A stretch of 64,000 nt of DNA from Candidatus Sumerlaeota bacterium (GCA_030613245.1 JAUWMI010000003.1:1062-65061); one strand, 5' to 3'. Shown: positions 5,072 through 61,548, numbered from the stretch's first letter. Numbers and translations are program-made. The notes: generated by a model not told the origin, from the letters alone.

Positions 5072-5743
5072 ATGAAAAAAATGAGAGGATTCACTCTCAT
5101 TGAGCTCCTCATCGTCGTGGCGATCATTGCGATTTTGGCAGCTATCGCAATACCGAACTTTCTGGATGCCCAGATTAGGTCAAAAGTATCGCGTGTCAAG
5201 ACAGATCAGCGCTCATTGGCAACAGGATTGGAAGCCTATTTCGTTGATTCTAACTCATATGTGGCCTATGCTGTGGGCGACCAGGGTGCAAATGGTTTTG
5301 CGATGCCCGCTCCAGGGGCTGGTAATGACCAAGTCGGGGCTACTTTGATTTATACCTTCCGGGTCCATACACCAGGAAATGAATATTTCCACACACTCAC
5401 CACCCCGATTGCGTACATGACCAGCTTTATTCGCGATCCTTTCGCGGATACGAAAATGTCTGGCTTTGGCTACTACTGCGATATCAGTGGTTGGATTATC
5501 ACTAGCTATGGTCCGGACACAGACGAAAACTGGGCTGCTTCGTCGGGTGCCAGTAAAGTGCCGGGTGACCTTCGGATGACAAATAACGAACCCGAGGTGG
5601 AGACCGTTTACACCAGCATGCATTCACAGCCAACATTGACGCTGCAGTGCCTGTTCAGTGCGCATGCGCCGGGAGAAGCCTTTACGTATGACCCAACCAA
5701 TGGAACTATTAGCCCGGGCGATGTTTATCGGGTGAAGCAGTAA
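5072..5743 (+). CDS. Prepilin-type N-terminal cleavage/methylation domain protein, a GspG/PulG-like type II secretion pseudopilin paralog.
   Basis: Canonical class-III signal 'MKKMRGFTLIELLIVVAIIAILAAIAIPNF' (G|FTLIE with Glu+5). The C-terminus has 'GPD...YDPTNGTISPGDV', shared with the three paralogs in this window. A strong RBS (GGAGGG) lies upstream. Confidence 0.85.
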   Translation: MKKMRGFTLIELLIVVAIIAILAAIAIPNFLDAQIRSKVSRVKTDQRSLATGLEAYFVDSNSYVAYAVGDQGANGFAMPAPGAGNDQVGATLIYTFRVHTPGNEYFHTLTTPIAYMTSFIRDPFADTKMSGFGYYCDISGWIITSYGPDTDENWAASSGASKVPGDLRMTNNEPEVETVYTSMHSQPTLTLQCLFSAHAPGEAFTYDPTNGTISPGDVYRVKQ

Positions 5744-5789
5744 GTGTAGCATCTGTTGGTGTTATAGACGGTTGATTGTATCTTCCAGG

Positions 5790-5823
5790 CAGACTGAGCT
5801 ACTCAGTCTGTCTGTTTTTTTTT
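5790..5823 (+). terminator. Rho-independent terminator downstream of the pseudopilin gene.
   Basis: Hairpin cagactgag-ctac-tcagtctg followed by an 11-nt T-run. Confidence 0.7.
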
Positions 5824-6067
5824 ATCTATTCCTACCTTGCACAAGTAGTTTACGCACCACATTGAACGTAGTCATCAAAACCTAGTTTAATCCGGTGTTG
5901 AAACGTTCTTTTCTCCAGCTGGTTTCAAGGCGGGATTATATGTGCTCTTAATTGGGAATTCGCAACATGGAAGATTGTTTATCCAGGGAATGAGGCCAAA
6001 AGGTATGCGTTGCATGGCTCTGGGGTGTTGCACATGGACGTGATGAAAAGCGAAGAGGCAAATGGGA

Positions 6068-6808: not shown

Positions 6809-7909
6809 CTAAAATCCACCAATAATTCTGGAACGATCGTCACCTGCATATCCTCCGCCGACAATGCGTTTAAATGCTGGCACATCCTCGGCATTTATCA
6901 TTCCGGTTTCCAGGGTGATGAGCTTCTTGTTGTACAGATCGACTAATGATTGATCAAATGTTTGCATTCCCTCGCCGCGGTTTTTGATCACCTGCACCAT
7001 ATCGTCAACTCGATCTTCGCGCATGAGCTTTCGGACAATGTCGTTGACGATCATGATTTCTACGCAAGGAACCTGGCCTTGATTATCCGTGGCAGGGATA
7101 AGCCGCTGGGAGATTACGGCCTTCAGTGCGATGCCAAGGTCGGAGCGCAGGAGGTGCTGCTCGTCGGTGGGGAAGTAATTGATGATGCGGTTTACGGTCT
7201 GAACCGCGTTGATGGTGTGCAGAGTGCTAATGACGAGATGACCGGTCATGGCAGCGCGGATGGCGTTGGTAATAGTCTCGCGGTCGCGCATTTCGCCAAT
7301 GAGAATGACGTCCGGATCCTGGCGGAGTGTGTGGCGCAGGCTCTGCTCGAACGAGCGAGCATCTATGCCGATCTCTCGCTGCTCGATTAAGCTCATCTTG
7401 TCCTTGTGGAGAAATTCAATTGGGTCTTCGATGGTAATGATATGCTCTTTGCGGGTGGAGTTGATATAATCCACAATGGCAGCCATTGTGGTAGACTTGC
7501 CTGTGCCGGTCGGGCCGGTAATAAGGATCATGCCACGACGGTATTCTGATATTTTACTGAGAACTGGTGGGAGAGTGAGATCGTCAAAGCTCAAATGTTC
7601 GTACTGAAGACGTCGCAATGAAAGACTGAGCGTGCCTCGTTGATAGAAAGCGTTTGAGCGGAATCGGGTAGTGTTGTCAATGCTGAAAGCGAAGTCAACG
7701 GAGCCATCACGCTTGAGAAATTCCTGGAGCTTGTTCGGGACGATTTTTTCCACAATGGCGGCCACTTCTTCCTTGGTGAGAGGAGGATGCTTGATCGGCA
7801 CCAGCTCCCCGTTCACACGGTAGATCGGGACCGCACCGGTTTTGAGATGGATGTCAGATGCATTCATTGTCTCCATTTGTTTGAGCAGCTCGCTGAAATT
7901 AACGGCCAT
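6809..7909 (-). CDS. pilT: Type IV pilus retraction ATPase of the PilT/PilU family.
   Basis: 366 aa. Walker A 'GPTGTGKST', Asp-box and His-box context 'ILIGEMRDRETI', typical PilT length and layout. Confidence 0.85.
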   Translation of the reverse strand: MAVNFSELLKQMETMNASDIHLKTGAVPIYRVNGELVPIKHPPLTKEEVAAIVEKIVPNKLQEFLKRDGSVDFAFSIDNTTRFRSNAFYQRGTLSLSLRRLQYEHLSFDDLTLPPVLSKISEYRRGMILITGPTGTGKSTTMAAIVDYINSTRKEHIITIEDPIEFLHKDKMSLIEQREIGIDARSFEQSLRHTLRQDPDVILIGEMRDRETITNAIRAAMTGHLVISTLHTINAVQTVNRIINYFPTDEQHLLRSDLGIALKAVISQRLIPATDNQGQVPCVEIMIVNDIVRKLMREDRVDDMVQVIKNRGEGMQTFDQSLVDLYNKKLITLETGMINAEDVPAFKRIVGGGYAGDDRSRIIGGF

Positions 7910-22407: not shown

Positions 22408-23898
22408 CTAGGGTTCGTGATTTTCAAGCATTTTGCTATGAGCTTGAGCGATCAATTCTCGGACAGTCGCCTTCTTGGTAGTGCACTCAATGGTGGCGAT
22501 GTCAAGCCGGATACGCCGATCTGTCTTATCAATCGCGATGCTTCTTACGCGAATCTGTTCTTTCAGGCGGCCCGCCAGCGCCTGAGCTTGCTGGAGCGGA
22601 GTTTCAGGTAGAAGAATAACAAACGTGCTTTCTTCAAAGCGCGCCAGGAAGTCGGTGTCGCGAATTGCATCTTTGAGACACTGCGTGGCATTGCGGAGCA
22701 GCTTGGTGGCTTCGTTTGGCCCCTTGAGTTTCAGGTAACCGTCGAAATAGTGGATGCCAACCATCATCAGGGTCAACGGCCGGTCGTAGCGCTTATAGCG
22801 GTTCAGCTCTTCCTGGAATTTGCCATGGAAATATTTAAAATTGAGAATTTCTAGCCCGGTATCCAGAAAAGCCTGATCAAGGGTAGTTTCATAGAGATTG
22901 CCAGTGGCCGCAGCCATTTTCCCACGCGGCGTAATCTTGTAGCGGTAAACACTGCGCAAGATCGCCTCGGCGAGCTTGAATTGCTTTTGACAATTAAGGC
23001 AGAAGCAATTGATCCCGGGCTGGGGAAAGACTACTGCACAGACATTACAGACAAAACTCTCGCTCGGCTTCTCGTAGTCAACTCCGATGTGCCGAAGAAC
23101 CTCTTCGCATTTCGGGCAGACTAGCTCCATGCCGCGCTGGAACTCCTGCTTGGGCCCCACGTATGCGCACTTGAAATGATGGATCAACTCGGTCATGGTC
23201 ATGTCGGGATTCTTGCAGTCAGGGCAGACCTCCATGAAACTCAGATTATACACGTTGCAGAACGGACACAGGTGAATGTTCGTGTAAAAGTTCTTCTCCA
23301 GACAGCCTTTAAGGGAGAGATCAGCAAGATGTTGATCAGTTTCCGCTGCGCTAGCCTCAAGGATCTCCCGAGCTTCGGGATAGGAGTAGCCGAAGGAGGA
23401 GTGGATGTCAGGCAAGGGTAAGAGTTCCTTATCCGGCGTTTCTGAGAGGCGCTTAAGCAGTTCAATTTTTTTCAGGTCAATAGCGCTAATGGTTGGCAAT
23501 GCCGATTGCAGAATACGCGTGCGACTGATGATGGCTTTTACGCGAGTCAGAAAATCTTCAGGATCGTAGGGCTTCAGGATGTAATCGAATGCACCCACGT
23601 CAAAGTCTTTTTCCTTGTCAGCAATCTCACGCTTTTTGCCAGTGAGAAAGAGGTAGGGAATCAACGCTGTTTCTGGATCGCGCTTCAGGGTATGAGCCAC
23701 GGCAAGTCCGTCAATGTCAGGCATGCCGACGTCGAGTATGATTAGATGGGGCCGAAAGATTTTTGCTGCGTCCAGGGTATCAGCACCACGCTCAATTGAT
23801 TTCACCTCATAGTTTTCGCTGCGCAGATGCTCATGCAGGAGTGCTGCTTGATCGGGATCATTCTCAACAACGAGAATTTTCAACTTTGGCATTGGCAA
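22408..23898 (-). CDS. Response regulator with an N-terminal REC domain, a Cys-rich zinc-ribbon (TackOD1-like) middle domain and a degenerate, probably inactive, GGDEF-like C-terminal domain.
   Basis: REC: 'KILVVENDPDQ...HLIILDVGMPDIDGL...KPYD'. Middle: five CxxC pairs (CPFC, CPDC, CPKC, CNVC, CLNC). C-terminal: GGDEF-fold signatures ('RYDRPLTLMMVGIHYFD', 'DFLARFEESTFVILLPET') with GG[DE]EF replaced by EESTF. Confidence 0.65.
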   Translation of the reverse strand: MPMPKLKILVVENDPDQAALLHEHLRSENYEVKSIERGADTLDAAKIFRPHLIILDVGMPDIDGLAVAHTLKRDPETALIPYLFLTGKKREIADKEKDFDVGAFDYILKPYDPEDFLTRVKAIISRTRILQSALPTISAIDLKKIELLKRLSETPDKELLPLPDIHSSFGYSYPEAREILEASAAETDQHLADLSLKGCLEKNFYTNIHLCPFCNVYNLSFMEVCPDCKNPDMTMTELIHHFKCAYVGPKQEFQRGMELVCPKCEEVLRHIGVDYEKPSESFVCNVCAVVFPQPGINCFCLNCQKQFKLAEAILRSVYRYKITPRGKMAAATGNLYETTLDQAFLDTGLEILNFKYFHGKFQEELNRYKRYDRPLTLMMVGIHYFDGYLKLKGPNEATKLLRNATQCLKDAIRDTDFLARFEESTFVILLPETPLQQAQALAGRLKEQIRVRSIAIDKTDRRIRLDIATIECTTKKATVRELIAQAHSKMLENHEP

Positions 23899-24188: not shown

Positions 24189-24839
24189 TCAAAATGCCGT
24201 TTTTTGAGAAAGAACGATGTCGCCTTCAGAGACTGTTCCGTTCGTTGGATCGTACGGCATATGGTTCGAGAAGACGGAATAGAGCTCATAAAGGTTCACA
24301 AGCCCGTCAGGGCCAACAGAGAGGAGTTTCCATTCGCCGTATTTGGCAATGCCAGCCAGGCATGCGTCCTCACTGACCGAGGGGCGCCATCCAATCCAAC
24401 TCGGGCCGAGGCCACCCCAATTCTCAAGGTTTGCCTCATAGTTGAGATAGCGATATTGGAAGAAATAGCGGAAGTAGGTAGTAACCTGGCGCTCGGAACG
24501 AAATGGGTCAAAGAAGAGTTCAGCCGAGACGTATGGCACAGGCGTGGTGAGCTGAATTGTGGGATACCATGGCCAGCCATCTTCGACGTCATTAGGGTAA
24601 TGAAGGTTGTCAATGCGATAGGATTCGAGCGCCATGGCCAGGGCGGTCATGTCGGTTTTGGCTGCGGCAATGCGATGGTTGACAAGGGCCTGGAAAAAGT
24701 TTGATGCGGTAGCTGCACCCAGTGTCGCTACCATCAGGCCGATGAGGCACCATTTGGCCATGGTTTCGATTTTCAGGATCATAATCCGCTGGAGAAATAC
24801 GCGGAAGCGCGCCCGCACAGTCTGAAGTTTTTGTGTCAT
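24189..24839 (-). CDS. GspG-like pseudopilin paralog with a non-canonical N-terminus (no G|FTLIE cleavage motif).
   Basis: Full-length homology to the 5072 and 50878 proteins ('ALESYRIDNLHYPNDVEDGWPWYPTIQLTTPVPYVS...GPD...YDPTNGTVSEGDIV'). The N-terminus is '...MAKWCLIGLMVATLGAATAS', so the TM helix is retained but the prepilin peptidase site and Glu+5 are not. Confidence 0.7.
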   Translation of the reverse strand: MTQKLQTVRARFRVFLQRIMILKIETMAKWCLIGLMVATLGAATASNFFQALVNHRIAAAKTDMTALAMALESYRIDNLHYPNDVEDGWPWYPTIQLTTPVPYVSAELFFDPFRSERQVTTYFRYFFQYRYLNYEANLENWGGLGPSWIGWRPSVSEDACLAGIAKYGEWKLLSVGPDGLVNLYELYSVFSNHMPYDPTNGTVSEGDIVLSQKTAF

Positions 24840-24927
24840 TTCTAGTCCTCCTGGAGTGGCCTAGGGTTTTTAGGTTTTTTCGCTCAGCCTTGTTGAAATT
24901 CGCAGAGGGCTATCTCTGCGCCTGCCT

Positions 24928-25521
24928 TTATTGTTTCTGATAACGAATGATATCGCCTTCAGAGTCAATTCCATTGGTTGGATCGTAAAGTAAATTGTTC
25001 GTGAAGAAGAAATACTGAATATTGTCATAGGATACATGCATATCAGGCCCAACAGAGAGCAGTTTCCATTTGCCGTATTTGGCCATGCCAGCCAGGCACT
25101 CCTCCTCACTGACCGCAGGGCGCCAATGAATCCACCCCGGGCCGACGCTCTTCCAACGCTCAAGGTTTGCCTCGTAGTTGATGTAGCGATGGAGGCGCCA
25201 GTAGCGGTGATAGGTAGGGGCTTGATATTCCGCACCACGAAAGGGATCGTGAAAGAGTTCGGGCGAGACGTAAGCGACCGGTGTGGTGAGTTGTACCGTG
25301 GGGAACCATGGCCAGCCATCTTCGACGTCGTTTGGGTATTTGAGATGGTCGAGGTGATACGCTTCCAGCGCCATGGCGAGCACAGACAGCTGGGTTTCGG
25401 TGGTGGCGATACGCTGACGTATGAGCGCGTCAAGGTAATTTATTTGTGTTGCGGCGCACAAGCTGACTGCCAGTACTGCACCGAGAAATAATTTTATGAA
25501 TAATCCATGTTTGCGTATCAT
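24928..25521 (-). CDS. GspG-like pseudopilin paralog with a degenerate prepilin signal (G-LFIKL, no Glu+5).
   Basis: 'MIRKHGLFIKLFLGAVLAVSLCAA...' aligns to 'KKGFTLIELLIVVAIIAILAA' of the canonical paralog. The C-terminus has 'SVGPDMHVSYDN...YDPTNGIDSEGDIIRYQKQ'. Confidence 0.7.
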   Translation of the reverse strand: MIRKHGLFIKLFLGAVLAVSLCAATQINYLDALIRQRIATTETQLSVLAMALEAYHLDHLKYPNDVEDGWPWFPTVQLTTPVAYVSPELFHDPFRGAEYQAPTYHRYWRLHRYINYEANLERWKSVGPGWIHWRPAVSEEECLAGMAKYGKWKLLSVGPDMHVSYDNIQYFFFTNNLLYDPTNGIDSEGDIIRYQKQ

Positions 25522-25562
25522 AGGAATTCTCTTCTAGTCAGTATTGCCTCGCACGCAGCTCA

Positions 25563-26753
25563 TCAGTAGTAGAGCTGCCAATTGGATGCATCGGTAGAAT
25601 AGAAAAGCACCATTCCCGATACGAAGCCACTCCCATCCGCATCGCCTTCATCTTCCTCATCATCGTAAATTCGCGTGTCAGCCCAGAAGTAGTTTGTCGT
25701 CCATGTATTGCCGTATGCAAAGATTTCGTTCGGGCTGTAATTTGCAAAATCATAGGGATTATTATTTTTGATGAGATTTCTTCCCAGGTCAGATGGAGTT
25801 CCGAAGTCGGGCAGGGCAGAGCGAAACGTGGTGACCCCGCCACAGCCGGGGCCGTTGTTTTCGATAGTATTGCTGCGGCAGAGCGGGTTCGCATCATCGG
25901 TGATCGCTATGCCGGCGTTGGTATTGTTCTGGATGGTATTATAGTAAAGTCCCGGGGCAGCACTTCGCCGGATGATTACGCCGTGGTCGTTTGCCGACAT
26001 GGTGTTTGCGTTTATGGTGGAGTGCGTGTTACCCGTGCAATAGAGGCCGGCCCAGGCGTTGCCGGTCAAAGAGGTTTCAGAGAGCGTGAGAGTTGAAGGC
26101 GCGTCGAGCAACATGAGGCCGGTGCCGTTGTTGGTTAAGGTATTATCGCTGAGATCCGAGATGTCAGGATCGGAAAGGAAGAGGCCAATGGCTTCAGAAT
26201 TGTTGGTGATTGTATTGTATTGCAGAAAGGGCCGGGCTTGCCCATACGCGTATATGGCCCCGTATTGACAGTGGGAGATGGTGGAGTTGGTAATCGTAGG
26301 GTCGCAGCCATAGCATGAAATGCCAATGGTGGCGTATTTCACCTCACAGTAATCTATCAGCGAGGACGTGCTGGTTGGCGAGAATACCAGCCCATGCCAG
26401 GTGCCCGGCGTCTCGGGATTGGCGGTAAAGATTACCGGACCTTGCGCTGTGTCCTGCGCCTGTAGCTGGCCGGCAATTTTAACGTAGTAGCCCGGCAGTG
26501 TTGGCTCCGAAGGGGCCAGCGCAACTAGCGTCTCGTTGGAGATTATTTCAAGCGCATCTCCTGAGGCAATCGTGAGATTTCCCTCCAGATAAAAGGTTGG
26601 CGAACTGCCGGTCACCGTTGGGCTGGAGATACTCACCAGGTCGGTCAGGGTGTACGTTTGTCCGGTTCCCGGGGTCTCAAAGTCTGCGCCACTCGCAAAG
26701 CGAGCAGCAAGCAGGATGACAGAGAATAAACCAACTCCCAGTAGTCTTCTCAT
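25563..26753 (-). CDS. Secreted right-handed parallel beta-helix repeat protein (NosD/pectin-lyase-fold-like) with a conserved acidic C-terminal tail.
   Basis: Signal peptide, then repeated 'N(T/S)I(T/S)xNxxxGI' beta-helix rungs (TITNSTISHCQYGAIYAYG, NTITNNSEAIGLFLSD, NTLTNNGTGLMLLD...). The C-terminus is '...YDDEEDEGDADGSGFVSG...NWQLYY'. Confidence 0.7.
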   Translation of the reverse strand: MRRLLGVGLFSVILLAARFASGADFETPGTGQTYTLTDLVSISSPTVTGSSPTFYLEGNLTIASGDALEIISNETLVALAPSEPTLPGYYVKIAGQLQAQDTAQGPVIFTANPETPGTWHGLVFSPTSTSSLIDYCEVKYATIGISCYGCDPTITNSTISHCQYGAIYAYGQARPFLQYNTITNNSEAIGLFLSDPDISDLSDNTLTNNGTGLMLLDAPSTLTLSETSLTGNAWAGLYCTGNTHSTINANTMSANDHGVIIRRSAAPGLYYNTIQNNTNAGIAITDDANPLCRSNTIENNGPGCGGVTTFRSALPDFGTPSDLGRNLIKNNNPYDFANYSPNEIFAYGNTWTTNYFWADTRIYDDEEDEGDADGSGFVSGMVLFYSTDASNWQLYY

Positions 26754-26773
26754 TTTTCCCCTCGCCTATTATC

Positions 26774-28000
26774 TTAATAGTAAAGCTGCCAACACGACTC
26801 TGCAGCTGTGGCTTCGTAGTGGACAATACCGGAGATAAAACCACTCCCATCCGCATCGCCAATGTCTTCTTCATCGTCGTAAATTACTGAGTCAATGTTC
26901 TGGGGAATGGTCCAGGAATTCCCGAAGGCCAGCAGATTATTCGTTGTAAAATTGACAAAATCGTATTCCAGATTGTCGCGGAAGGTATTCCCGCCAGGAG
27001 ATTCCACGAAACCAAGGTCCGGACGAGAGTCGTCAAACGCCACGAAGCCTCCAATGGCTGTGCTATTATTGGCAATTATGTTCTTGCGCACAACAGGGGA
27101 AGCATTCGCCGCCGTGGCGATGCCGAGCAGGGTATTGGACGACACCGTATTGCCGTCGAGCGTGGCGGTGGAATGGCTGGCAATCACGATGCCGGCATTG
27201 TTCCATTCAATCTGGTTGTTGCGAATAGAAGATGTGTCGTATCCAGCCGCATAGAGGCCGATCTCGGTATTGTAAGCTATTCGATTGTGTGCGACACTGG
27301 TGGCAGCTGCTGGGTCTGCGAGCACTACGCCGGCCTGGTTATCAGTGATGGTATTATTGGAGAGGGTTGCTCTGGAGAATCGGCTGAGCACGATGCCGGC
27401 GCCAGAATGGATAGCGAGAATCCTGGTGTCTGAAATGAAGGGCTCTGCAGCGCCATAGCAGTAAATCCCAGCATACTTGCACTGCGAGATAACACAGTGA
27501 TCAATTATGGGGCTTGCACCATAGCAAGTAATGCCAGCCACGGCATTCGAAAGTGCACAGTAGATCATCTCGCTTCCGGTTGATGTAGGGAGTATTTGAA
27601 TTCCGTACCACATGCCAGCGCGATCCGTGAGGGACGTCAGCATGCAGTAGGCATGCGGGTAGCCATAAGCCAGTAGGCGTCCGGCAATCTTGATGGCATA
27701 GCCAATGCTGGTGGGATCATCTGCGACGAAAAGTAGCTGGCCTCCAGCAAAATACAGCGTATCGCCGGGAGAGATTGTTAGGTTTCCGTTTAACTGAAAA
27801 TAGGCGCCATAGTATTGCACCGTACCTCCGGATAGAGCTGCAAGGGCATAGAGGTCGAATATTTCTCCTCGCCCCGGGGTTACGTAGTCTCTGGCACTAG
27901 CAGTGGCTGCGCAGATAGTTAGGATGAGAAAGAGTGTTGCACCATAAAAGAATCTCTTGCCCCGTATAAGAGGAGAATTTGACACCTGCTCAAGCTCCAT
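26774..28000 (-). CDS. Secreted right-handed parallel beta-helix repeat protein, paralog of 25563-26753.
   Basis: Same repeat type (HCVISQCKYAGIYCYGA, NNTITDNQAGVVLAD, NNQIEWNNAGIVIAS...). The C-terminus '...YDDEEDIGDADGSGFISGIVHY...CWQLYY' is nearly identical to the paralog's tail. Confidence 0.7.
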   Translation of the reverse strand: MELEQVSNSPLIRGKRFFYGATLFLILTICAATASARDYVTPGRGEIFDLYALAALSGGTVQYYGAYFQLNGNLTISPGDTLYFAGGQLLFVADDPTSIGYAIKIAGRLLAYGYPHAYCMLTSLTDRAGMWYGIQILPTSTGSEMIYCALSNAVAGITCYGASPIIDHCVISQCKYAGIYCYGAAEPFISDTRILAIHSGAGIVLSRFSRATLSNNTITDNQAGVVLADPAAATSVAHNRIAYNTEIGLYAAGYDTSSIRNNQIEWNNAGIVIASHSTATLDGNTVSSNTLLGIATAANASPVVRKNIIANNSTAIGGFVAFDDSRPDLGFVESPGGNTFRDNLEYDFVNFTTNNLLAFGNSWTIPQNIDSVIYDDEEDIGDADGSGFISGIVHYEATAAESCWQLYY

Positions 28001-28432
28001 AGAGGTCTAGAACCTGACTATTTGATAATGCAAAAAGCTTGCCAATAGCAAGGGAAAAAACAGGCAGAATCTTAAGTCCAGTAAAAACAATATCCCGGAG
28101 CATATTTTTGTGGGGTGCGTTATCTGAAGATCATGTCGGGCGGATCAAGAATGAAGAATATTCTTCAATTTTGTAGAATGGATTGTAGATAATTCTGCAG
28201 TGAGATTAAGGAATCAATGATGAATGTGCCTCTAATGGGCGGGGAGAAAGGAAAACTGTTGATAGGATCCAAGCTGAATGCTTGCCTGCTGCTGCTGGCT
28301 ATTATTGGCTGCTATTTCTTTTCAAACATTTTGTCTACAGATTGTTTGCTTATCTTTCTTTCAGTTGATCGGGTGTAGCGCGTCCGCTGTAACGAGATGT
28401 TAGACGACCAGGCCATTGATGTGGCTTGGCTA

Positions 28433-44068: not shown

Positions 44069-46054
44069 TTGCACGCAAGCCGCCATTTTGATTATCTAAT
44101 AATGAACCGTAGGAGTAAGAATATGAGGCTTTTTCTTTACAGTAATGAGGGGAAACCGCAGAAGGAATTTGATCTGGGAATAGGAGAACACGTGCTCGGA
44201 ATCTCCAGCGGGCATGAATTTGTAGAGTTAACGTCACAAGAAGAAGGCAAACGTCTTTTTCAGGTAGAAGTGACGGAAGACGATTCCGCAGTTATTTTGG
44301 ACTGCGGATGTGAAAATGGTTTATTCCTCAACGAGAAGAAGGTGAGCAAGGCGCATTTGAAAGCCGGCGATGAAATCGTTGCCGAAGATCATTTGCTCGT
44401 CTGCGAACAAAAGAAGGTGGTTCGCAATTATATATTTGTTTCGGAAGAGAGCAAAGACCCAGTGGAGCTTACTGACGATGCTGGCAATGTGACCATCGCC
44501 TGGATGCTATCCAGCTCAGAGGTGCTGGATCCTTCAGCACTGCTTGAGTCTGGTAGCGCTTATAGTCTGGAGAAGAGCCACAAGCAGTTGTTTTCGCTGC
44601 TCGAGATCAGCCAGGAGGTGAATTCGACATTTAATCTGTCGCACCTACTCGAGAAGATTGTTGACTACCTATTCCAGGTGATGCTGATTGAACATGCCAT
44701 TATCATGCTCACCCAGGGGCCCGGACAACCGCTGCCAATAAAGGTTGCAGTGCGGCGGGGCGTACGCAGCGATACGATTCCAGTGAGTCGAACGATTGTG
44801 AATACTGTTTTGCACGATGGGATCTCGGTGGCAACGGCAAATGCTCTGGAGGATCCACGGTTTCGCACCAAGGATAGTGTTGTGGAACAGCAGATTCGCT
44901 CGGCCATGTGTGTACCGCTGCTGCGCGCGGGCAAGGTGGTTGGAGTGATCTACGTTGACTCTCGGAATCCGGCAGTGACTTTTGAGCAGGAAGATTTGCG
45001 GTTTCTTGCGATTCTGGCGAACCTCACGTCCATTGCGATTGAGAATGCCACTCGCGTCAACAGGCTGGAATTAGAAATCAGCGGCTGGCGCGAGGAGTGT
45101 AAGCCGGACGAATACATCATTGGCAAATCGCCCAAGAGCATTCAGCTGTACGAGCTCATTAGGCGGGTAGCTGGAAGCAGTGTGACGGTGCTGCTGATGG
45201 GGGAAAGTGGGACGGGGAAAGAGATGGTAGCCCGCGCCGTCCATCAGTTAGGTCCGCGGCATGAGAGTCCCTTTGTAACCATCAACTGTGCGATTCTTTC
45301 AGAGAATCTGTTGGAGAGCGAGTTATTCGGCTATGAGAAGGGTGCGTTCACGGGGGCTGTGAACTCAAAGCCGGGGCGGTTTGAAATTGCGAGCGACGGA
45401 ACGGTCTTTCTCGACGAGATTGGCGAGATCAGCCCGGCGTTTCAGTCCAAATTGCTGCGGGTACTGGAGGGTGCCGGATTTGAGCGCGTGGGCGGCATTA
45501 GAACCATTACGTCCAGCGCTCGTGTCATTGCAGCTACGAATAAAGATCTGGAGGCCGAGGTCGCAAAAGGCAAGTTTCGAAGTGACCTGTTTTTCCGCCT
45601 GAATGTTTTCCCAATTTATCTCCCACCGCTATGTGAGCGGAAAGAGGACATCCTGATCCTGGCCGACTATTTCCTCAACAAATTCGCCACAGAGGATGTT
45701 AAGCATATTCAGGGTTTCACGGCAGATGCCAAGGCCTGGTTTTTGGAATATCACTGGCCGGGCAATGTGCGCGAGCTCAAAAACGTCATCGAACGGGCCG
45801 TACTCCTCTGTGATGAACAGCTCATCACCAAAGCAATGCTTCTCCATCCGTGTGGCGAGGGAGAGATATCCGGGCTGGACGTGCGTACCAGCAAATCCCT
45901 TTGGAAACGAGAAGAGGAGGCGATCGTTAATGCCCTGCGAGAGGCGGGGTGGAATAAAACCAAAGCCGCAAAAATCCTTGGTATTGCACGTCATCAGCTC
46001 ATTTATCGCATGAGCAAGTACCATATAGAAGAAGTTGATCTGGGAAAACCATAA
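44069..46054 (+). CDS. Sigma-54-dependent transcriptional activator with FHA and GAF sensor domains.
   Basis: N-terminal FHA-like ('[15 protein letters not shown]...GLFLNEKKV'), then GAF ('[16 protein letters not shown]'), then AAA+ with 'GESGTGKE' and the sigma-54 contact motif 'GAFTGA', and a C-terminal Fis-type HTH '[16 protein letters not shown]'. The true start may be the internal ATG (MRLFLYS, ~44123). Confidence 0.85.
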
Positions 46055-46219
46055 CCAGATCAGCGCGGCGGTGCGGCCAGCTGCTTGCAATAGGTGCCTG
46101 ATCGGACGCAGTGAGTAGAACACAGGCTTTTTAACATCTCCAGTACATCTTGCTCTATGTTCAAGATCCTGAAGTGGTACTGCTGGCGCAACAATTCAAT
46201 CTGCTTATAGAGGTGAGCA

Positions 46220-46876
46220 ATGACTGTGTATCAGATGATCAGTTTGGCCGGTATGGCCTCCTCGGCTACTAACAACGGTGCCAGGCCCGAGTTTGTCACC
46301 GTTCCTTACGAGAAGTTCTTTTCTCTGCTTCTGGTCATCAGCATCTTCATTCTTGTTGTAGGGGTTGTGTTGCTGATTGTGCGGTATTTTCTAGGGTTTT
46401 TAGAGCAGCAGAGAGAAGAGGCAGCCTCCGCCGCCAGATTCGAAGGACAGGTGTTGCGGGAATTTGGCGGGGCGAGCGGGCCAAAGGCTGAGCCATCATT
46501 GCATATGGCTCCTGCCGCTGCTGCACAACAGGTACCAGCCGATGAACACAGCCCGCCAGTGCCCCAAGCGCCGTCGGGCTCTAAAAAGGCGGACATGGAC
46601 CGTGCCACGGCAGAGCTGATAAAGAAGTTGCAAGCAGGAGGGCTTTACACGGGGACGGAGGGCACGATTTCGATGGAACAAGGTGGTGCTCAGGCGCAGA
46701 TTATTCGTTTGCAGGACAACAAGATCGCCCTGATCGTACCCTCCTACCAGTCAGAGCAATCCCTCGCGCAGTATGCGAAGCGCTTCGACTTTCTCTTTGT
46801 TATGTTAAGCGGGGACCAGGTGCTCGTGATACAGAGGTATCAGGATTTCGTCGCGGACAGGATGTCATTAGATTAG
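46220..46876 (+). CDS. Hypothetical single-pass membrane protein.
   Basis: 218 aa. TM helix 'LLVISIFILVVGVVLLIV', a Pro/Ala-rich linker and a C-terminal globular region. Confidence 0.35.
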   Translation: MTVYQMISLAGMASSATNNGARPEFVTVPYEKFFSLLLVISIFILVVGVVLLIVRYFLGFLEQQREEAASAARFEGQVLREFGGASGPKAEPSLHMAPAAAAQQVPADEHSPPVPQAPSGSKKADMDRATAELIKKLQAGGLYTGTEGTISMEQGGAQAQIIRLQDNKIALIVPSYQSEQSLAQYAKRFDFLFVMLSGDQVLVIQRYQDFVADRMSLD

Positions 46877-47148
46877 TTACTCAAAGTGCCCGAAAATATG
46901 GCGGGCATTTCGTGCATTTATCCGCCTCTGGTGGATAGCCTGGCTGTGGCGCCCCAGCTATAATACCTCAGCAAGCACAGATTCCTGAGCGAGACGTAAT
47001 GATGGCGCTCCGAGACGAATAACAACCGATCTCTAAAGCATTGGTTGTACAGGAGTTGAAAAATTAATAGCCGCTTTTAATAACATAATTGTTCAGAACT
47101 GACCGGGTGCAATTGGGTTGACGCTGTCCATGTATAGGCTATACTTTA

Positions 47149-49134
47149 TTGAAGCACTGTAAGCGTCTCGGTGTCACAATATTCTGTTGGGTGCATTTGA
47201 TTTATTCCCTGAGGATCATTGTATTGACAAGGCATACACGACCAAACCTTGGCATCACACTGACCCTGCTGCTCGGTCTGGCATGGGTGTTCGGGTATGT
47301 ATTTGTTCATGCAGCGGATGAAATCCACCTTAATGACGGCCGAATTGTAGTTGGTTCTATCATTGAAACAACAGATTCCTACGTTCTGGTCCGAACGACC
47401 CAGAGCGAGTTTCGCATTGATAAGTCTCGGATTGTGAAGATTATACAGCAGCGTGACACGAGCAAAGAAGAGATCGAGGGGGATATGGCTTTGGAGGCGG
47501 GCCAGCTGGAGAAAGCATTGAATTTCTATCGTGCAGCACTGGCTCTGAAACAAAACGAAGAGGAGCTGGACCGTAAGATTCGGAACGTGCAGAAGCTCAT
47601 AAAGGACCGCGAAGAGCAGTATTTCGGCGAGTCGCTCAAGCAGATTGACGAGCTGATCCAAGAGGGGAGCTTGGACGCAGCAGAAGCAATGTTGCTCGAG
47701 ATTCTCAAGCCGGTGCCAGAAGGCCCGACCCGCGAGCGTCTTGAGGTCAGGCGTGCCAATATTCATTACCAAAAAGCCTTGGATTATCTCAATCGAGTGG
47801 ACTATCTGAAGGCGGAAGATGAACTTCGGCGCTCCATCGCGGTTCAGGAAGAATTTTATCCTGCTCACCTAAAGCTGGCCGAGCTCTTTTCCAAGCTTGC
47901 GCCCACTAAGCGCGTTGCCATCCAGGAATATCTGAAAGGCATGAAATATGGGGCAGACTCACTCTCCGAGGAAGAAATGTGCGAGTACAACTTTTCCGTG
48001 GCGTCGTTGTATTACGAACTCGCGGATTACCTTCCCGCGATCAAGCACTTTCGGATTGTGGCTGACATGGGGATTATGAAAACCTTGCAATGCAAGATGC
48101 GCATAGCCGAGGGGTACTATAGGCTGGCTGATGCTGCTGAGCAAAATGGTAATGTGTCACAGGCCGTAGCATATCTTCACCAGGCTGTCGAGGTGCTGCC
48201 AAGTTTCAAAGAGAGCTGGTTTAAGTTGGGCTATCTCTATCTTAAGCAGAACAAGTGCAAGGAAGCCATTGATTATCTTGAGGAGGCCTTACGCATTGAC
48301 AATTGGATTCCCGATGCGCACTATTACCTGGCCATGTGTTATCATGAGCAGAAGAACCAAGAGCGGGCGCTACGCGAGCTGGATAATGAGGTTCTCTACA
48401 ATCCAGCTAATTATAATGCGCTGTGTATGAGAGGGGAGATTTATTTTGCTGGTGGGAAATATGAAGAGGCGACCGAGGATTTTAAAAAGGCACGCGATAT
48501 CAATGATCAGAAGTTTCGAGCCTACTTTGGCCTGGGCAAGGCGTATCTGAGGCTCAAGGACCTGGCGAGGGCTGAGGAAAATTTGAGACGGGTGCTGGAC
48601 ATCGAACCCAGGCATCCCGAAGCGATTCTGCTGATGGGAACGATTTATCGAGAATGGAAGCGCTATGAAGAGGCGCGGGAGCTGTTTGAGAAGGTTATCG
48701 AAACCCTGAAGCGCTACGAGTTATCGCTATCTGAAGAAAATAAGGCTATACTTACTACAGCGCTGAACGAACGTGGGGGCATTGAGTTGATCATGGAACG
48801 CCCACGCACGGCAATTGACGACTTTGAAGAGGCGCTCAACTATAATCCTCGCCGTGCGGAGACCTATTCTAACCTGGGCCAAGCCTACAGACAGCTTGGC
48901 AGGATTCCGCAGGCGGAGAGTCACTATATTCGCGCGATTGAGCTAGACCCTAAGAATCCTGACTATTATCTTGGGCTTGGGATTATCTATCATAATTACC
49001 TGAAGAGATTAGACAAAGCCGTTGAGTATTACACCAAGTACATCTTATTTAACGGGCCAGACGCGCTCACGGTCAACAAGTGGATCGAAGAGTGCGGAGG
49101 GAAACCGGTCGATCTCACAACAGTAAAACAGTGA
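47149..49134 (+). CDS. TPR-repeat protein with an N-terminal signal/anchor.
   Basis: 661 aa. Hydrophobic 'ITLTLLLGLAWVFGYVFVHAA', then multiple TPR units ('AIDYLEEALRIDNWIPDAHYYLAMCY', 'YFGLGKAYLRLKD...'). The true start may be downstream of 47149. Confidence 0.55.
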   Translation: MKHCKRLGVTIFCWVHLIYSLRIIVLTRHTRPNLGITLTLLLGLAWVFGYVFVHAADEIHLNDGRIVVGSIIETTDSYVLVRTTQSEFRIDKSRIVKIIQQRDTSKEEIEGDMALEAGQLEKALNFYRAALALKQNEEELDRKIRNVQKLIKDREEQYFGESLKQIDELIQEGSLDAAEAMLLEILKPVPEGPTRERLEVRRANIHYQKALDYLNRVDYLKAEDELRRSIAVQEEFYPAHLKLAELFSKLAPTKRVAIQEYLKGMKYGADSLSEEEMCEYNFSVASLYYELADYLPAIKHFRIVADMGIMKTLQCKMRIAEGYYRLADAAEQNGNVSQAVAYLHQAVEVLPSFKESWFKLGYLYLKQNKCKEAIDYLEEALRIDNWIPDAHYYLAMCYHEQKNQERALRELDNEVLYNPANYNALCMRGEIYFAGGKYEEATEDFKKARDINDQKFRAYFGLGKAYLRLKDLARAEENLRRVLDIEPRHPEAILLMGTIYREWKRYEEARELFEKVIETLKRYELSLSEENKAILTTALNERGGIELIMERPRTAIDDFEEALNYNPRRAETYSNLGQAYRQLGRIPQAESHYIRAIELDPKNPDYYLGLGIIYHNYLKRLDKAVEYYTKYILFNGPDALTVNKWIEECGGKPVDLTTVKQ

Positions 49135-49244
49135 GCGGTCTACTTGGCGCGAAACGTCGCCCTCGCCTAGGCGAGTGCAAAACGCTTCGGGGCGTCTCGC
49201 CCAGCCACTTTGATGCGACAGCTAACACTTCACTTTTCAGCCCA

Positions 49245-50165
49245 ATGATCTGCTTGACGAGGCCCTTGGCAATTCTGATACTCCTTGCGCTTCTCGCCCT
49301 CTCGAGCGCAAGTCTCCGATGTGCCGCCCACCGGCGGGAACTTCCCGTGTATCCTTATGAAAATCTCTTGAGCATTCTGGCAGATTTTCAGTGGCATCTT
49401 GAGGACGACATCTACCGCTTTCCATATCCTCGGGATGCGGCTGGCAACAATATCTTCAAGATTACCATTGTCCGGCTGGCGAACTACCAGGAGCTTTATC
49501 CCGGCAGATTTTACGATATCGTGGCATTTGCCCGTGCCCAGGCCTATGAACGCCTGGGGGATTATCAACAGGCGATTGCTAATTACCAGCAGGTGCTGGG
49601 CAGTAACACAGAATTGAAACCATTGGCGCAAGAGAAGATGGCTATAGCCGAGGAATTTAATGAGACTATCAACCAGCCGCTGGAGCAGAGGACATTGCAG
49701 GGGTATATGGATGCCCTCAAGGATAAGATTGCACAGTTGGATCAGCTCATTACGCTCTACGAGGAAACACCGTATGAGGCGCTGGCAGAGGTGGAGAAAG
49801 AAAACGCTGAGGTTGAATATGCTGTTTTGCTGATAGAGAATCGCATGGTAATAAGAGATGGGGTTGAAAAGGCCGTCATCCAAATCCAGAAGCTGATCCA
49901 GGACAACGGCGAGAGCAAGAGAATTTATGCACATCGCGTACTGCTGGCGGATTTCTATTTTGCCCTGGCAAAGGAGTATGTTCTGCTGAACGATCCGGAA
50001 CAGGCTGCTTTCAAAATAAAGGAGTTCGAGGCTCTTGTGTCGGCCGCGCGAGCTCAGTACTACCAAGTTGAGCAGGCCGATGGGTACGAAGAGAAGCTTG
50101 AGGCCAGGGCCAAGTTGGAGGCGCTCAGGGAGTTTGCAAACACGATTGCCGCGCGGGCCAGGTAA
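49245..50165 (+). CDS. Hypothetical secreted alpha-helical protein.
   Basis: Start trimmed to the ATG at 49245 (signal peptide 'MICLTRPLAILILLALLALSSASL'). The rest is helical and TPR-like. The longer ORF from 49080 overlaps the upstream gene. Confidence 0.4.
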   Translation: MICLTRPLAILILLALLALSSASLRCAAHRRELPVYPYENLLSILADFQWHLEDDIYRFPYPRDAAGNNIFKITIVRLANYQELYPGRFYDIVAFARAQAYERLGDYQQAIANYQQVLGSNTELKPLAQEKMAIAEEFNETINQPLEQRTLQGYMDALKDKIAQLDQLITLYEETPYEALAEVEKENAEVEYAVLLIENRMVIRDGVEKAVIQIQKLIQDNGESKRIYAHRVLLADFYFALAKEYVLLNDPEQAAFKIKEFEALVSAARAQYYQVEQADGYEEKLEARAKLEALREFANTIAARAR

Positions 50166-50877: not shown

Positions 50878-51498
50878 ATGAGGCCTAAAAAAGGGTTTAC
50901 TTTGATCGAATTGTTGATCGTTGTAGCTATTATTGCCATTTTGGCCGCCATTGCTATTCCGAATTTTCTCGAGGCGCAGATTCGGTCAAAGGTCTCAAAA
51001 GCAAAGGCTGATATGAGAACGGCCACCACTGGGCTGGAGTCTTATTTTGTTGATCACAATAAATACCCTAACGATGTGGAAGCTGGGTGGCCCTGGTATT
51101 TTACCGTGCAATTAACGACCCCGATCTCATATCTGACCAGCACTAATCTACTCGATCCATTTCGGGACACTCATGTTCGAACCGGCCATGTGTACTGGAG
51201 ACGCTACCGTTACATTAACTACCCGGCGAATCTGGACAATTGGGGCGGTCTCGGGCCGAGTTGGATTGGATGGAGGCCGTCGGTTACTGAGTCGGAGTGC
51301 CTGGCGGGCATGCGCAAATACGGCATGTGGAAATTGTCGTCTGCGGGACCGGATCGGTTCATTAGCTACGACTCGGAGCATGGCTTCTTCACCAACGAAA
51401 TGGTCTACGATCCGACCAATGGAACGGTTTCAGTTGGAGACATTATCAGGTCGCAAAAGGATCCGGATGTCAGGAGCCAAGAGTATATTGATCCGTAG
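50878..51498 (+). CDS. Prepilin-type N-terminal cleavage/methylation domain protein, GspG-like pseudopilin paralog.
   Basis: 'MRPKKGFTLIELLIVVAIIAILAAIAIPNF' canonical class-III signal with a strong RBS (AAGGGAGGTG). The C-terminus has 'AGPDRFISYD...YDPTNGTVSVGDIIRSQKD'. Confidence 0.85.
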   Translation: MRPKKGFTLIELLIVVAIIAILAAIAIPNFLEAQIRSKVSKAKADMRTATTGLESYFVDHNKYPNDVEAGWPWYFTVQLTTPISYLTSTNLLDPFRDTHVRTGHVYWRRYRYINYPANLDNWGGLGPSWIGWRPSVTESECLAGMRKYGMWKLSSAGPDRFISYDSEHGFFTNEMVYDPTNGTVSVGDIIRSQKDPDVRSQEYIDP

Positions 51499-54609: not shown

Positions 54610-54614
54610 GAAAT

Positions 54615-55076
54615 CTATCTCTTTAAGATCCTGCTGGCAGCCAAAACTGCCTGCACTTGCTTAACGTAGCCTGTGCAACGGCACAGATTTCCATCAAGGG
54701 CCTCGCGGACTTGTGCTTCGCTTGGATGAGGAATTTCGTCAAGCAAGGCTTTTGCCGACAGCATGGCGCCAGGCGTGCAGTATCCGCACTGAATAGCGCC
54801 AGCGTCAACGAAGGTACGCTGCAGGGGATGGGGCGCGTCGGGCGTGCCAAGGCCTTCAATGGTTGTTATCTGCTGGCCGGCGGCTCGTACGGCCAGAATC
54901 AGGCAGGAATTAACTGCCTTCCCGTTGAGCAGAATCACGCATGCCCCGCACGTGCCTTTGCGGCACCCTTCCTTCACGCCCTTATATCCTTCGCGGCGCA
55001 GAACGTCCAGGAGCACGTCATTTGGCTCGACACTAAGCACCTTTTTCTGGCCATTAATGGCTGTTGTGATTTTCAC
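54615..55076 (-). CDS. (2Fe-2S)-binding small subunit of the molybdo-oxidoreductase (CoxS-like).
   Basis: 'CRKGTCGACVILLNG' plant-type ferredoxin Cys cluster plus a second 'CGYCTPGAML...CRCTGY' cluster. The start is assigned to the GTG at 55076, which forms a GTGA overlap with the upstream gene's stop. The longer ATG-started ORF overlaps that gene by 97 nt. Confidence 0.8.
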   Translation of the reverse strand: MKITTAINGQKKVLSVEPNDVLLDVLRREGYKGVKEGCRKGTCGACVILLNGKAVNSCLILAVRAAGQQITTIEGLGTPDAPHPLQRTFVDAGAIQCGYCTPGAMLSAKALLDEIPHPSEAQVREALDGNLCRCTGYVKQVQAVLAASRILKR

Positions 55077-56014: not shown

Positions 56015-56209
56015 TCTGTTCTTTGGCGGAATTCGTGTTAACTCAGTATACAAGGCAGAACAAAGGACGCGATGCTGCGCTCCGGCACTGCGTAGCATGC
56101 ATCTCTTGTAACGAGTTGAAATAATAGGGGAAGGGGTTTGGCGTAGTAAAGGATTTCTTTTTATTTTGAGAGGCAGGCGGATTGTTATTGAGCAAGGAGG
56201 AAGCAAGGT

Positions 56210-61007: not shown

Positions 61008-61238
61008 ATGCAGAAAAAATTAACCATCACTATTGATGAGGAAGTTTATTTTGGACTGCACAATGTCATAGGTCCAAGAAAAATTAGCAAATTTGTTGAA
61101 AACTTGGTTCGTCCACACGTCGTCAAACATGAGCTCGAATCGGCGTATGCTGAAATGGCGAAAGATAAACATCGGGAAAAGGAAGCTCTGGAATGGGCTG
61201 AGGCCACCTTCGGAGACAGCGCTCATGAAAAGAGGTGA
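61008..61238 (+). CDS. MazE/PemI-like antitoxin.
   Basis: 76 aa ORF immediately upstream of, and overlapping, the MazF/PemK-family toxin gene. The N-terminal '[15 protein letters not shown]' fits a swapped-hairpin/RHH antitoxin. Confidence 0.65.
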
Positions 61239-61548
61239 AGTGTGGTGGGTAAATTTTGGCCGTTCCATTGGTGGAGAGATTCGCAAGAAACGCCCTGCAG
61301 TAATAGTTAGCAATGATGCCTCCAATAAGTTCCTGAATAGAGTTCAGGTTGTTCCGCTTACCGGTAAAATTGACCGCCTCTATCCCAGTGAAACATATGT
61401 ACTTGTTAATCGTAAACAAAGCAAAGCCATGGCTGATCAATTAGCAACAGTAAGCAAATTACGCCTGTTCAATAAAATTGGCTTTCTTTCGACAGACGAC
61501 ATGCAAAAGGTTGGAGAGGCGCTGAAGATTCAACTTGATCTTAAATAG
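61225..61548 (+). CDS. MazF/PemK-family endoribonuclease toxin.
   Basis: '[46 protein letters not shown]' is the PemK/MazF signature. The start is trimmed to the ATG at 61225, which overlaps the antitoxin stop by 14 nt. Confidence 0.85.

Follow-up and report, generated by a model that had tools for sequence, protein, structure and literature searches.

How does a pair of genes for secreted beta-helix proteins come to be followed by a pair of genes for pilin relatives that carry no prepilin signal, and do the four products act together? The locus in question, designated here as genes A, B, C, and D, lies within a stretch of 64,000 nucleotides from Candidatus Sumerlaeota (GCA_030613245.1, JAUWMI010000003.1:1062-65061), which is referred to as the window. 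With a probability that we put at roughly 40%, the cluster is a clade-specific Sumerlaeota operon for four Sec-exported envelope proteins, in which non-polymerising pilin heads would serve as partners of glycan-type beta-helix proteins.

Organization and Conservation of the Gene Cluster

The ORF listing of the window places A (26774..28000), B (25563..26753), C (24928..25521), and D (24189..24839) on the minus strand, all co-directional and separated by 20 bp (A-B), 41 bp (B-C), and 88 bp (C-D), in agreement with the close packing described in the first-pass annotation. No terminator-like site was found in the A-D intergenic spacers. Immediately ahead of A, a sequence resembling a sigma-70 promoter (28017..28045, minus strand) is weak evidence for a promoter, as such matches are no more numerous in this region than expected from shuffling.

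At least five related lineages of Sumerlaeota keep the order A-B-C-D (loci L001-L005, L007, L008, L009, and L014; partial order was counted where a contig holds only part of the cluster), and gene order and short gaps persist at 70-92% protein identity. Each of the four genes is under purifying selection (dN/dS = 0.11-0.16, with an underlying dS of ~1-1.6); against the L001 orthologues, dN/dS is 0.115 for C and 0.159 for D. These data support A-B-C-D as a conserved unit. It is confined to one narrow clade of uncultured Sumerlaeota, a phylum for which polysaccharide scavenging has been inferred (PMC8092238).

The synteny might nonetheless be devoid of functional coupling, with C and D as drifting pilin-like duplicates that landed by chance beside two beta-helix genes. 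Such an origin would be consistent with the narrow distribution of the association, with the distant beta-helix family members that do without it, and with a 334-bp insert between A and B in L009 that has no apparent harm. However, the dN/dS values at this depth of synonymous divergence indicate that C and D are both maintained, the arrangement has persisted at 70-92% protein identity, and the remodelled N-termini (see below) have derived features that C and D hold in common in every lineage. We consider uncoupled synteny very unlikely.

Beta-Helix Proteins A and B

A is a 408-aa protein with a predicted signal peptide ending at approximately CAATASA/RDY (here and below, a slash marks a cleavage site), and B is its 396-aa paralogue, with a signal peptide predicted to end at FASGA/DFETPG and a ribosome-binding site GAGGGG ahead of the gene. 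Both are parallel beta-helix repeat proteins (PF13229/TIGR03804) of the right-handed type: Pfam Beta_helix matches them at E values of 6e-25 (A) and 1e-27 (B), in addition to NosD-type repeats, and the repeat models give 97 and 88 bits (PF13229) and 39.6 and 54.5 bits (TIGR03804, cut-off 19.45). A falls within a family of ~390-aa proteins that have a conserved N-terminal D(Y/F)xTPGxG and an acidic tail. The AlphaFold model of B (pLDDT 81.6) is a regular beta-helix over residues 25-350, with values >90 for most rungs, and its closest PDB folds are AlgG/AlgE epimerases, PL6 lyases, and tailspikes.

The best PDB sequence matches of A and B are NosD and AlgG, and the proteins resemble the NosD/AlgG/AlgE group in Pfam Beta_helix and NosD repeats and in fold (TM 0.63 to AlgG; also the AlgE4 and AlgE6 A-modules), but unlike that group they lack a DPH(D/E) motif and have no nos or alg genes nearby. 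Assignment to NosD was rejected, given that TIGR04247 has a cut-off of 300 bits and scores 23.1 and 42.2 here, and that there is no nosZ/F/Y context; the window holds no nos genes at all. Assignment to the mannuronan C5-epimerases (AlgG/AlgE) was also rejected, with DPH absent from either protein and a likeness at the level of fold only (13-14% identity). Because the DPH(D/E) epimerase motif is missing, no catalytic activity is assignable to A or B; based on the structural model, we infer a carbohydrate-binding or carbohydrate-modifying fold class.

Pilin Ancestry of C and D

C (197 aa) derives from the type IV pilins but lacks a class III signal, and D (216 aa, with AGGAGG 7 nt before the ATG at 24839) is its paralogue, at 58% identity. 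Both align end to end, at ~51% identity, with the product of a canonical pilin-like gene outside the operon (50878..51498, plus strand), which carries KKG/FTLIE and Pfam N_methyl and whose own synteny is conserved in L013. Identity to P0008 and P0009 is also ~51%, and the relationship to the gene at 5072-5743 is looser (30%). C and D are thus full-length homologues of the canonical pilin-like genes of the window, as had been proposed; they have the alpha-1C and globular head of type IV pilins, and the alignments indicate that their ancestor was a canonical pilin-like gene of the 50878 type.

The earlier label "GspG-like" claims somewhat too much. Matches to the GspG models (T2SSG/TIGR01710) cover alpha-1 only (profile positions 6-40 of 108) and are at or below cut-offs: 25.7 and 19.1 bits for TIGR01710 (cut-off 88.85), and 21.9 bits (D) and 17.7 bits (C) for PF08334 (cut-off 21). 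Below the whole-domain score, and with no gsp operon context (secretin, ATPase, platform genes), C and D were rejected as the T2SS major pseudopilin; the genes around them are of the beta-helix, RR-GGDEF, RDD, and unknown types, and the only T2SSE-type ATPase lies 17 kb off. In comparisons with solved structures only residues 3-64 match, the best being type IV pilins in general; the C model has a pLDDT of 41. C and D share with type IV pilins and pseudopilins full-length homology to an N_methyl-positive protein and an alpha-1 that matches solved pilins and GspG, but, unlike them, have no G/F-x-x-x-E, Pro22, N_methyl match, or T2SS/T4P operon context.

Remodelled N-Termini of C and D

The loss of the prepilin signature noted in the first-pass annotation is real and conserved in orthologues. 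GFTLIE is absent from the C and D ORFs and, as these are maximal, no in-frame upstream start restores G-F-T-L-I-E. The Glu5 position is occupied by Lys in 6/6 C/D-type sequences, none of which has Phe1, and Pro22 is absent; Gly-1 is present in the C of the window and in the P0002/L009 orthologues, whereas P0003 has Ser and P0004 has Thr at this position, and neither D sequence has the Gly. Pfam N_methyl (PF07963) gave no match to C or D at E<=1, compared with 1e-9 to 1e-10 for the canonical paralogues. With Gly(-1) not conserved, Glu+5 and Phe+1 lost, a weak alpha-1N, and no N_methyl, C and D were rejected as class III signal pilins.

In place of G/FTLIE and the hydrophobic alpha-1N, the first 25 residues of C (MIRKHGLFIKLFLGAVLAVSLCAAT; 25447..25521, minus strand) resemble a Sec-type signal peptide. 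The first 45 residues of D (24705..24839, minus strand) comprise an Arg-rich n-region of 29 residues, a hydrophobic core of 11-12 residues (WCLIGLMVATLG), and AATA/SN; this N-terminal extension is kept in the orthologue P0005 (RIRQFIQRIMILKTE..AKWCL). By inspection, both proteins fit the Sec/signal-peptidase-I pattern (KLFLGAVLAVSLCAA/TQ in C; KWCLIGLMVATLGAATA/SN in D), and their c-regions (CAA/TQ and AATA/SN) resemble the signal-peptide end of A. The transmembrane helix and membrane anchoring previously attributed to C and D are doubtful: the hydrophobic core that follows the conserved Lys is ~11 residues long, Kyte-Doolittle 19-residue maxima are 1.6-2.3 vs 3.19 in the canonical paralogues, and sites of small residues come after this core. 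The N-termini have the look of signal peptides for Sec and signal peptidase I, not of anchors that were retained, and cleavage by signal peptidase I would be expected. The -3/-1 rule alone does not discriminate, because canonical pilins also carry A-x-A (AIA/IP), and the unusually long basic n-region of D is as compatible with a signal anchor as with a peptide that is cleaved. For the C of the window alone, prepilin-peptidase cleavage may be possible, given Lys-His-Gly before the hydrophobic stretch.

The K-H-G in this C and its closest orthologues is also among the features that would suit non-polymerising subunits of a type IV filament machine (cap, primer, terminator, or platform-docking regulator), with A and B as cargo or tip adhesins. 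So would the high conservation of alpha-1C and the head relative to the canonical pilin-like paralogue, and the presence of canonical pilin-like genes and a PilT-type ATPase elsewhere in the window. GspK, a minor pseudopilin without Glu5, provides a comparison, since Glu5 is dispensable in GspK-type tip subunits. However, GspK keeps a normal alpha-1N and Gly-1, whereas in C and D the charge of Glu5 is reversed, Pro22 is lost, the hydrophobicity of alpha-1N has collapsed, and Gly-1 is inconstant among C orthologues and missing from D. Moreover, no T2SS or T4P assembly genes were found adjoining the cluster or in its conserved neighbourhood. Membership of such a machine appears unlikely.

The C-Terminal Tail of A and B

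The tail reads IYDDEEDIGDADGSGFISGIVHYEATAAESCWQLYY in A (26777..26884, minus strand) and IYDDEEDEGDADGSGFVSGMVLFYSTDASNWQLYY in B (25566..25670, minus strand). A and B are 39% identical overall, 72% over the last 36 aligned residues and 36% over the rest, which confirms the claim that divergent bodies converge on a near-identical tail. Synonymous divergence is saturated alike in the tail and the rest (pS 0.70 and 0.73), which indicates that the likeness has been kept by selection at the protein level rather than by recent gene conversion or chance. The tail is the best-conserved part of A and B; that of A is 94% identical to its L001 orthologue, vs 74% for the rest of the protein. Within the window, YDDEED.GDADGSGF(V/I)SG...WQLYY occurs in A and B only. 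The B model is not confident over the tail (residues 353-396, pLDDT <50).

A search of the tail profile against 1.84 billion proteins recovered the same core motif at internal positions in the multidomain beta-helix proteins P0047, P0049, and P0050, where Beta_helix directly precedes it and Por_Secre_tail, cohesin, or dockerin domains follow. In these proteins, as in A and B, GN.WG...I...I.D.EED...G.V.F.P directly follows the last beta-helix rung; unlike them, A and B end soon after the motif, add GDADGSGF and W.LY, and have no downstream sorting domain. Members of the tail-bearing family at three distant loci (L010, L011, and L012) have no pilin-like neighbour. Given its internal position in multidomain relatives and its occurrence without pilin-like neighbours, the core (GN.W...I..IYDDEED...G.V.F.P) is a fold end-cap. 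Judged from these homologues, the A/B tail is mostly a normal beta-helix end-cap with a generic core; the only parts specific to the family of ~390-residue proteins are an insert of 8 residues, GDADGSGF, and W.LY at the terminus. The acidic DxDG-type insert is possibly a Ca2+ site.

Models for sorting domains (PEP-CTERM, LPXTG, GlyGly-CTERM, T9SS Por_Secre_tail, and similar) gave no NCBIfam or Pfam match to A or B at E<=1, and the tail contains neither Lys nor Arg and lacks a hydrophobic helix. With no model match, no transmembrane segment or basic cluster, and a homologous motif that is internal elsewhere, a C-terminal protein-sorting domain was rejected, and the proposal of a dedicated sorting or recognition signal tied to the pilin-like genes is not supported. 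A tail general to beta-helix proteins irrespective of neighbourhood had been named in the first-pass annotation as grounds for refuting its proposal, and the findings come close to this, with the family-specific insert and W.LY as the qualification.

These results bear on the possibility of a dedicated surface-display or secretion module in which C and D, as uncleaved pilin-like proteins anchored in the membrane, would recognise the acidic tail of A and B. There is precedent in TcpF-TcpB and CofJ-CofB, in which a short flexible terminal peptide of the secreted protein is the recognition element for the pilin (PMC10120004, PMC9565799, PMC6048534). As in those systems, a secreted protein is encoded in an operon with a pilin-family partner; the tight linkage of the four genes in one clade, the conservation of the tail above all other parts of A and B, and a family-specific insert and W.LY that are otherwise without explanation would also fit. 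However, those systems rely on a true minor pilin that is assembled, and on a recognition peptide at the N-terminus, whereas C and D have lost the assembly determinants and the C-terminal tail core of A and B is generic to the fold; in the multidomain relatives, genuine sorting domains come after it. Tail-bearing homologues without pilin-like neighbours, a tail lacking the attributes of a sorting signal, hydrophobic segments in C and D that are weak, and short, by the standard of membrane anchors, and the lack of adjacent T2SS/T4P assembly genes further argue against it. Simple charge complementarity is also missing, because the tail is acidic and so are C and D in their mature form (pI 5.6 and 4.7). 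On balance, we think a display module of this type improbable.

A Possible Two-Component Envelope Module

On the reading of the cluster as an operon for four exported envelope proteins, the class III signal of a pilin-like gene would have become a signal peptide of the Sec/signal-peptidase-I type in a single ancestral event: Gly-1 and Phe1 would have been lost, Glu5 replaced by Lys, the hydrophobic core shortened, Pro22 lost, and a small-residue cleavage site created. Duplication of the remodelled gene would then have yielded C and D. As a consequence of the remodelled signal, the pilin head would no longer be able to polymerise into a filament, and would instead be free, or only loosely tethered, in the periplasm or cell envelope, where C and D would most likely act as binding partners or accessory subunits of A and B on a glycan substrate, in physical association with them. 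It is conceivable, although doubtful, that C and D serve as soluble or loosely tethered partner subunits of the secreted beta-helix proteins and may recognise the acidic Ca2+-type insert or W.LY; the cluster would then represent a previously undescribed two-component envelope module.

Downstream of D is a gene for a response regulator-TackOD1-GGDEF protein of the diguanylate cyclase type (22408..23898, minus strand; Pfam), raising the possibility of c-di-GMP control of the cluster. It may be a separate transcript, because a 290-bp gap separates it from D. The gene occupies the same place after D in L001, L002, and L007, and its product is 82% identical to the L001 orthologue.

Gene Organization and Conservation

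The locus comprises genes for two secreted beta-helix paralogs, A (26774–28000; 408 aa) and B (25563–26753; 396 aa), followed by genes for two type IV pilin-derived paralogs, C (24928–25521; 197 aa) and D (24189–24839; 216 aa), all on the minus strand and all maximal ORFs, with spacers of 20 bp (A–B), 41 bp (B–C), and 88 bp (C–D); the co-directional, closely spaced set described in the first-pass annotation, made from the sequence alone, is thus confirmed. Ribosome-binding sites are clear for B (GAGGGG) and D (AGGAGG), the sigma-70-like match directly upstream of A is weak, and no terminator-like site was found in the A–B, B–C, or C–D spacers. Immediately 3' of the C stop codon, the C–D spacer (24840–24927, minus strand) contains a 7-bp inverted repeat without a T-run (CGCAGAG ATAGCC CTCTGCG), which could form an mRNA-stability or attenuation hairpin inside the operon. 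Alternative-frame ORFs of 151–187 aa that overlap C and D (24204–24704, plus strand; 24870–25433, minus strand; 25036–25491, plus strand) have no family matches and are most simply a by-product of pilin-like gene composition.

Related loci were recovered by exact-protein look-ups and a scan of species-representative genomes, the latter indicating uncultured Candidatus Sumerlaeota as the host. The order A-B-C-D, followed by a response-regulator–TackOD1–GGDEF gene, is found in L001 and L002; L003 and L004 have A-B-C plus a partial D at the contig end, L005 a partial A, then B, C, and a partial D, L007 a partial B, then C, D, and the start of the GGDEF gene, L014 B-C-D, L008 an A-like and then a C-like gene, and L009 A-B-C reaching the contig end. 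In the genome scan, identity to B was 92% in L009 and 34% in L010. Relative to the L001 orthologs, protein identity is 72–77% and dS about 0.9–1.6, with dN/dS of 0.11 (A), 0.16 (B), 0.12 (C), and 0.16 (D). The conserved gene order and these low ratios indicate that a single clade maintains A–D as a unit, across five or more of its lineages. Of the three rival explanations considered, synteny without functional coupling is made the least likely by this purifying selection.

The GGDEF gene (22408–23898, minus strand), which the first-pass annotation does not mention, lies directly downstream of D after a 290-bp gap and keeps this place in L001, L002, and L007; it is therefore part of the conserved neighborhood, and a link to c-di-GMP is suggested at the level of synteny only. 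In L009, the 92%-identical relative, the A–B spacer (5667–6000) measures 334 bp vs 20 bp in the window, and a 26-bp direct repeat, ATGCGCCTTAGTACATTAAAATTTCA, encloses the extra DNA, suggesting that a small, MITE-like mobile element was inserted.

Pilin Ancestry and Proposed Export Signals of C and D

C and D are 58% identical and align end to end (~51% identity) with a canonical pilin-like gene (50878–51498, plus strand), the product of which begins MRPKKG↓FTLIELLIVVAIIAILAAIAIPNF (arrow, cleavage site) and matches Pfam N_methyl. The full-length homology proposed in the first-pass annotation therefore stands, although its GspG-like label is generous: C and D match T2SSG alone, at or below cut-off and confined to the alpha-1 helix. 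When C was searched against 5.8 billion clusters, only a handful of close relatives lacked N_methyl, namely the C-/D-type orthologs P0002–P0007, and every further match was a canonical pilin-like protein carrying G↓(F/L)TL(I/V)E. Among solved structures, only positions 3–64 match, to both type IV pilins and GspG, which makes “type IV pilin-derived” a more accurate description than “GspG homolog.” The model of C, built from an 8-sequence alignment, has a pLDDT of 41, and the pilin fold of its head is predicted by sequence homology only. The canonical paralog is itself an orphan, as assembly genes are missing from its surroundings; it is syntenic with genes for two TPR proteins and a GAF-sigma54 activator (44069–50165), an arrangement kept in the related organism of L013. 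Another orphan pilin-like gene (5072–5743) lies 1 kb from a lone PilT/PilU-type T2SSE ATPase (6809–7909, minus strand; 366 aa), which adjoins coaBC and guanylate kinase.

The reported loss of the prepilin site holds, because the C and D ORFs are already maximal and no upstream in-frame start can restore it. All C-/D-type sequences carry Lys (IKL, MKW, AKW) at the position of Glu5 and have lost Pro22, and their uninterrupted hydrophobic stretch after the Lys is ~11 residues long and leads into small residues (LCAA↓TQ in C; LGAATA↓SN or GAAAS↓S in D); Kyte–Doolittle 19-residue maxima are 1.6–2.3 vs 3.19 for canonical paralogs. Gly-1 is retained in the window C (KHG↓LFIKL) and its closest orthologs; P0003 has Ser in its place, P0004 has Thr, and D lacks the Gly altogether. 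The c-regions of both proteins resemble the end of the A signal peptide (ICAATASA↓RDY), the cleavage point of which is fixed by its family-conserved mature N-terminus. We infer that a class III signal was converted once, before the C/D duplication, into a Sec/signal-peptidase-I-type signal peptide, and that signal peptidase I would cleave both C and D. The E5K replacement would have supplied the charge of the n-region, and the head domain (residues about 60–197) would have remained under strong constraint. The loss of the prepilin signal is real, conserved, and modestly surprising.

The n-region of D is an Arg-rich extension of 29 residues (24753–24839, minus strand; TVRARFRVFLQRIMILKIE), kept in P0005 as TRIRQFIQRIMILKTE, and would also suit a signal anchor. 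It resembles, but does not match, the Tat motif (RRxFLK): a Tat signal (RARFRVFLQ; TRIRQFIQ in P0005) is not supported, because the twin Arg is missing and charged residues lie between motif and h-region. C was rejected as a lipoprotein despite its conserved LCAA, since a lipobox rarely suits Leu at -1 and no Cys of D corresponds to that of C.

Beta-Helix Proteins and Their C-Terminal Tail

A and B match Pfam Beta_helix and NosD repeats. The model of B, with a mean pLDDT of 81.6, shows a regular right-handed beta-helix (mostly above 90 over residues 25–350), with low confidence at the signal peptide and the tail (residues 353–396). In the PDB, its fold is closest to the alginate epimerases AlgG (TM 0.63) and AlgE4/AlgE6, then to PL6 lyases and phage tailspikes; the best PDB sequence matches, NosD and AlgG, are confined to the repeats. 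Identification as NosD (family model score far below cut-off) or as AlgG-type epimerases (DPH(D/E) epimerase motif absent) was rejected, and the safe statement is that A and B have a predicted glycan-binding or glycan-modifying fold class, in keeping with a phylum for which polysaccharide scavenging has been inferred (PMC8092238).

As first described, the two proteins diverge over most of their length and converge on a near-identical C-terminal segment (39% identity overall; 72% over the final 36 residues and 36% over the remainder). Both parts are saturated at synonymous sites (pS 0.70 and 0.73), which rules out recent gene conversion as the cause and indicates that the tail is held by protein-level selection. 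A profile of the two tails gave 26 matches at E ≤ 1e-3 (HMMER, 1.84 billion representative proteins), about 18 of them beta-helix proteins of 370–470 residues with the architecture of A and B (signal peptide, conserved D(Y/F)xTPGxG start, beta-helix, and a tail that ends the protein); no candidates came from a word-index search that used just the 71-residue tail. The tail is thus a trait by which one small orthologous family is marked, rather than a tag common to otherwise unrelated proteins.

The tail core, A.GN.W(G)......I...IYDDEED...G.V.(F/Y).P, also occurs within multidomain beta-helix proteins, P0047 (residues 424–490 of 581), P0049 (435–510 of 1143), and P0050 (81–145 of 559), directly C-terminal to Pfam Beta_helix and followed by Por_Secre_tail, FlgD_ig, cohesin, or dockerin. 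Being internal in relatives and ahead of genuine sorting domains, the core is best read as the end-cap that closes the beta-helix domain at its C-terminal side. A and B match none of the Pfam or NCBIfam sorting-domain models, and the tail has neither a hydrophobic helix nor a basic residue. Moreover, more distant tail-family members in L010, L011, and L012 have no pilin-like gene nearby (at least three loci, a small count, with at least two confirmed by metagenome scan), with a second beta-helix gene, hisA, and thioredoxin flanking the family gene in L010 and L011. A tail that is generic to beta-helix proteins regardless of neighborhood, the outcome named in the first-pass annotation as refuting its reading, is thus largely borne out, and the shared sorting tail is largely explained away. 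The result documents that NosD-type beta-helix domains widely carry a C-terminal end-cap motif, one readily taken for a sorting tag.

Specific to the A/B family and a few relatives are the 8-residue insert GDADGSGF, a DxDG-type acidic loop, and the terminal W-x-(L/I/F)-(Y/F). Upstream of the tail-family gene, L010 (458–1873) and L011 (3367–4755) encode different beta-helix proteins (471 and 462 aa) that end in VWSLY or VWSVY without the acidic motif, an echo of the A/B terminal W.LY; in this lineage, W-x-L-Y may characterize secreted beta-helix proteins as a feature in its own right.

Proposed Roles of A–D

In the best-supported reading, all four products would exit the cytoplasm via Sec, A and B as envelope or secreted beta-helix proteins and C and D as pilin head domains unable to enter a filament, since they lack the Phe1/Glu5 pair, a long alpha-1N, and a conserved peptidase site. 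C and D would probably be accessory binding partners of A and B. GspK also lacks Glu5, and by analogy C and D might instead be non-polymerizing components of a type IV filament machine. The display or secretion module of the first-pass annotation is a further rival, and any of the three rivals may yet be correct.

The evidence does not support C or D binding the tail directly, because the core is generic, tail homologs occur without such partners, and mature C and D (pI 5.6 and 4.7) are acidic like the tail, for which reason electrostatic complementarity was rejected; Ca2+-bridged binding to the family-specific insert may occur. The closest functional precedents for a secreted protein docking on a pilin via a terminal peptide are TcpF–TcpB and CofJ–CofB, although in these systems the pilins do assemble and recognition is through an N-terminal peptide (PMC10120004, PMC9565799, PMC6048534).

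The locus combines known kinds of protein, the type IV pilin family and beta-helix proteins. In the literature searched, we found no description of Sumerlaeota pilins, of naturally Sec-targeted pilin-family proteins, or of the A–D operon, an absence that is not proof. A class III signal peptide and polymerization are the defining traits of type IV pilin-family proteins; if our reading is true, the pilin fold is reusable outside filaments, with the class III signal traded for a Sec-type leader and the head domain kept, and “pseudopilin-like” matches without N_methyl are not necessarily pseudogenes or mis-called starts. Practical reach is limited, with the operon found only in one clade of an uncultured phylum.

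Elsewhere in the window are a xanthine-dehydrogenase-family three-gene set (52267–56317, minus strand), a catalase (58116–59648, plus strand), and a PemK/MazF-type toxin gene (61093–61548, plus strand).
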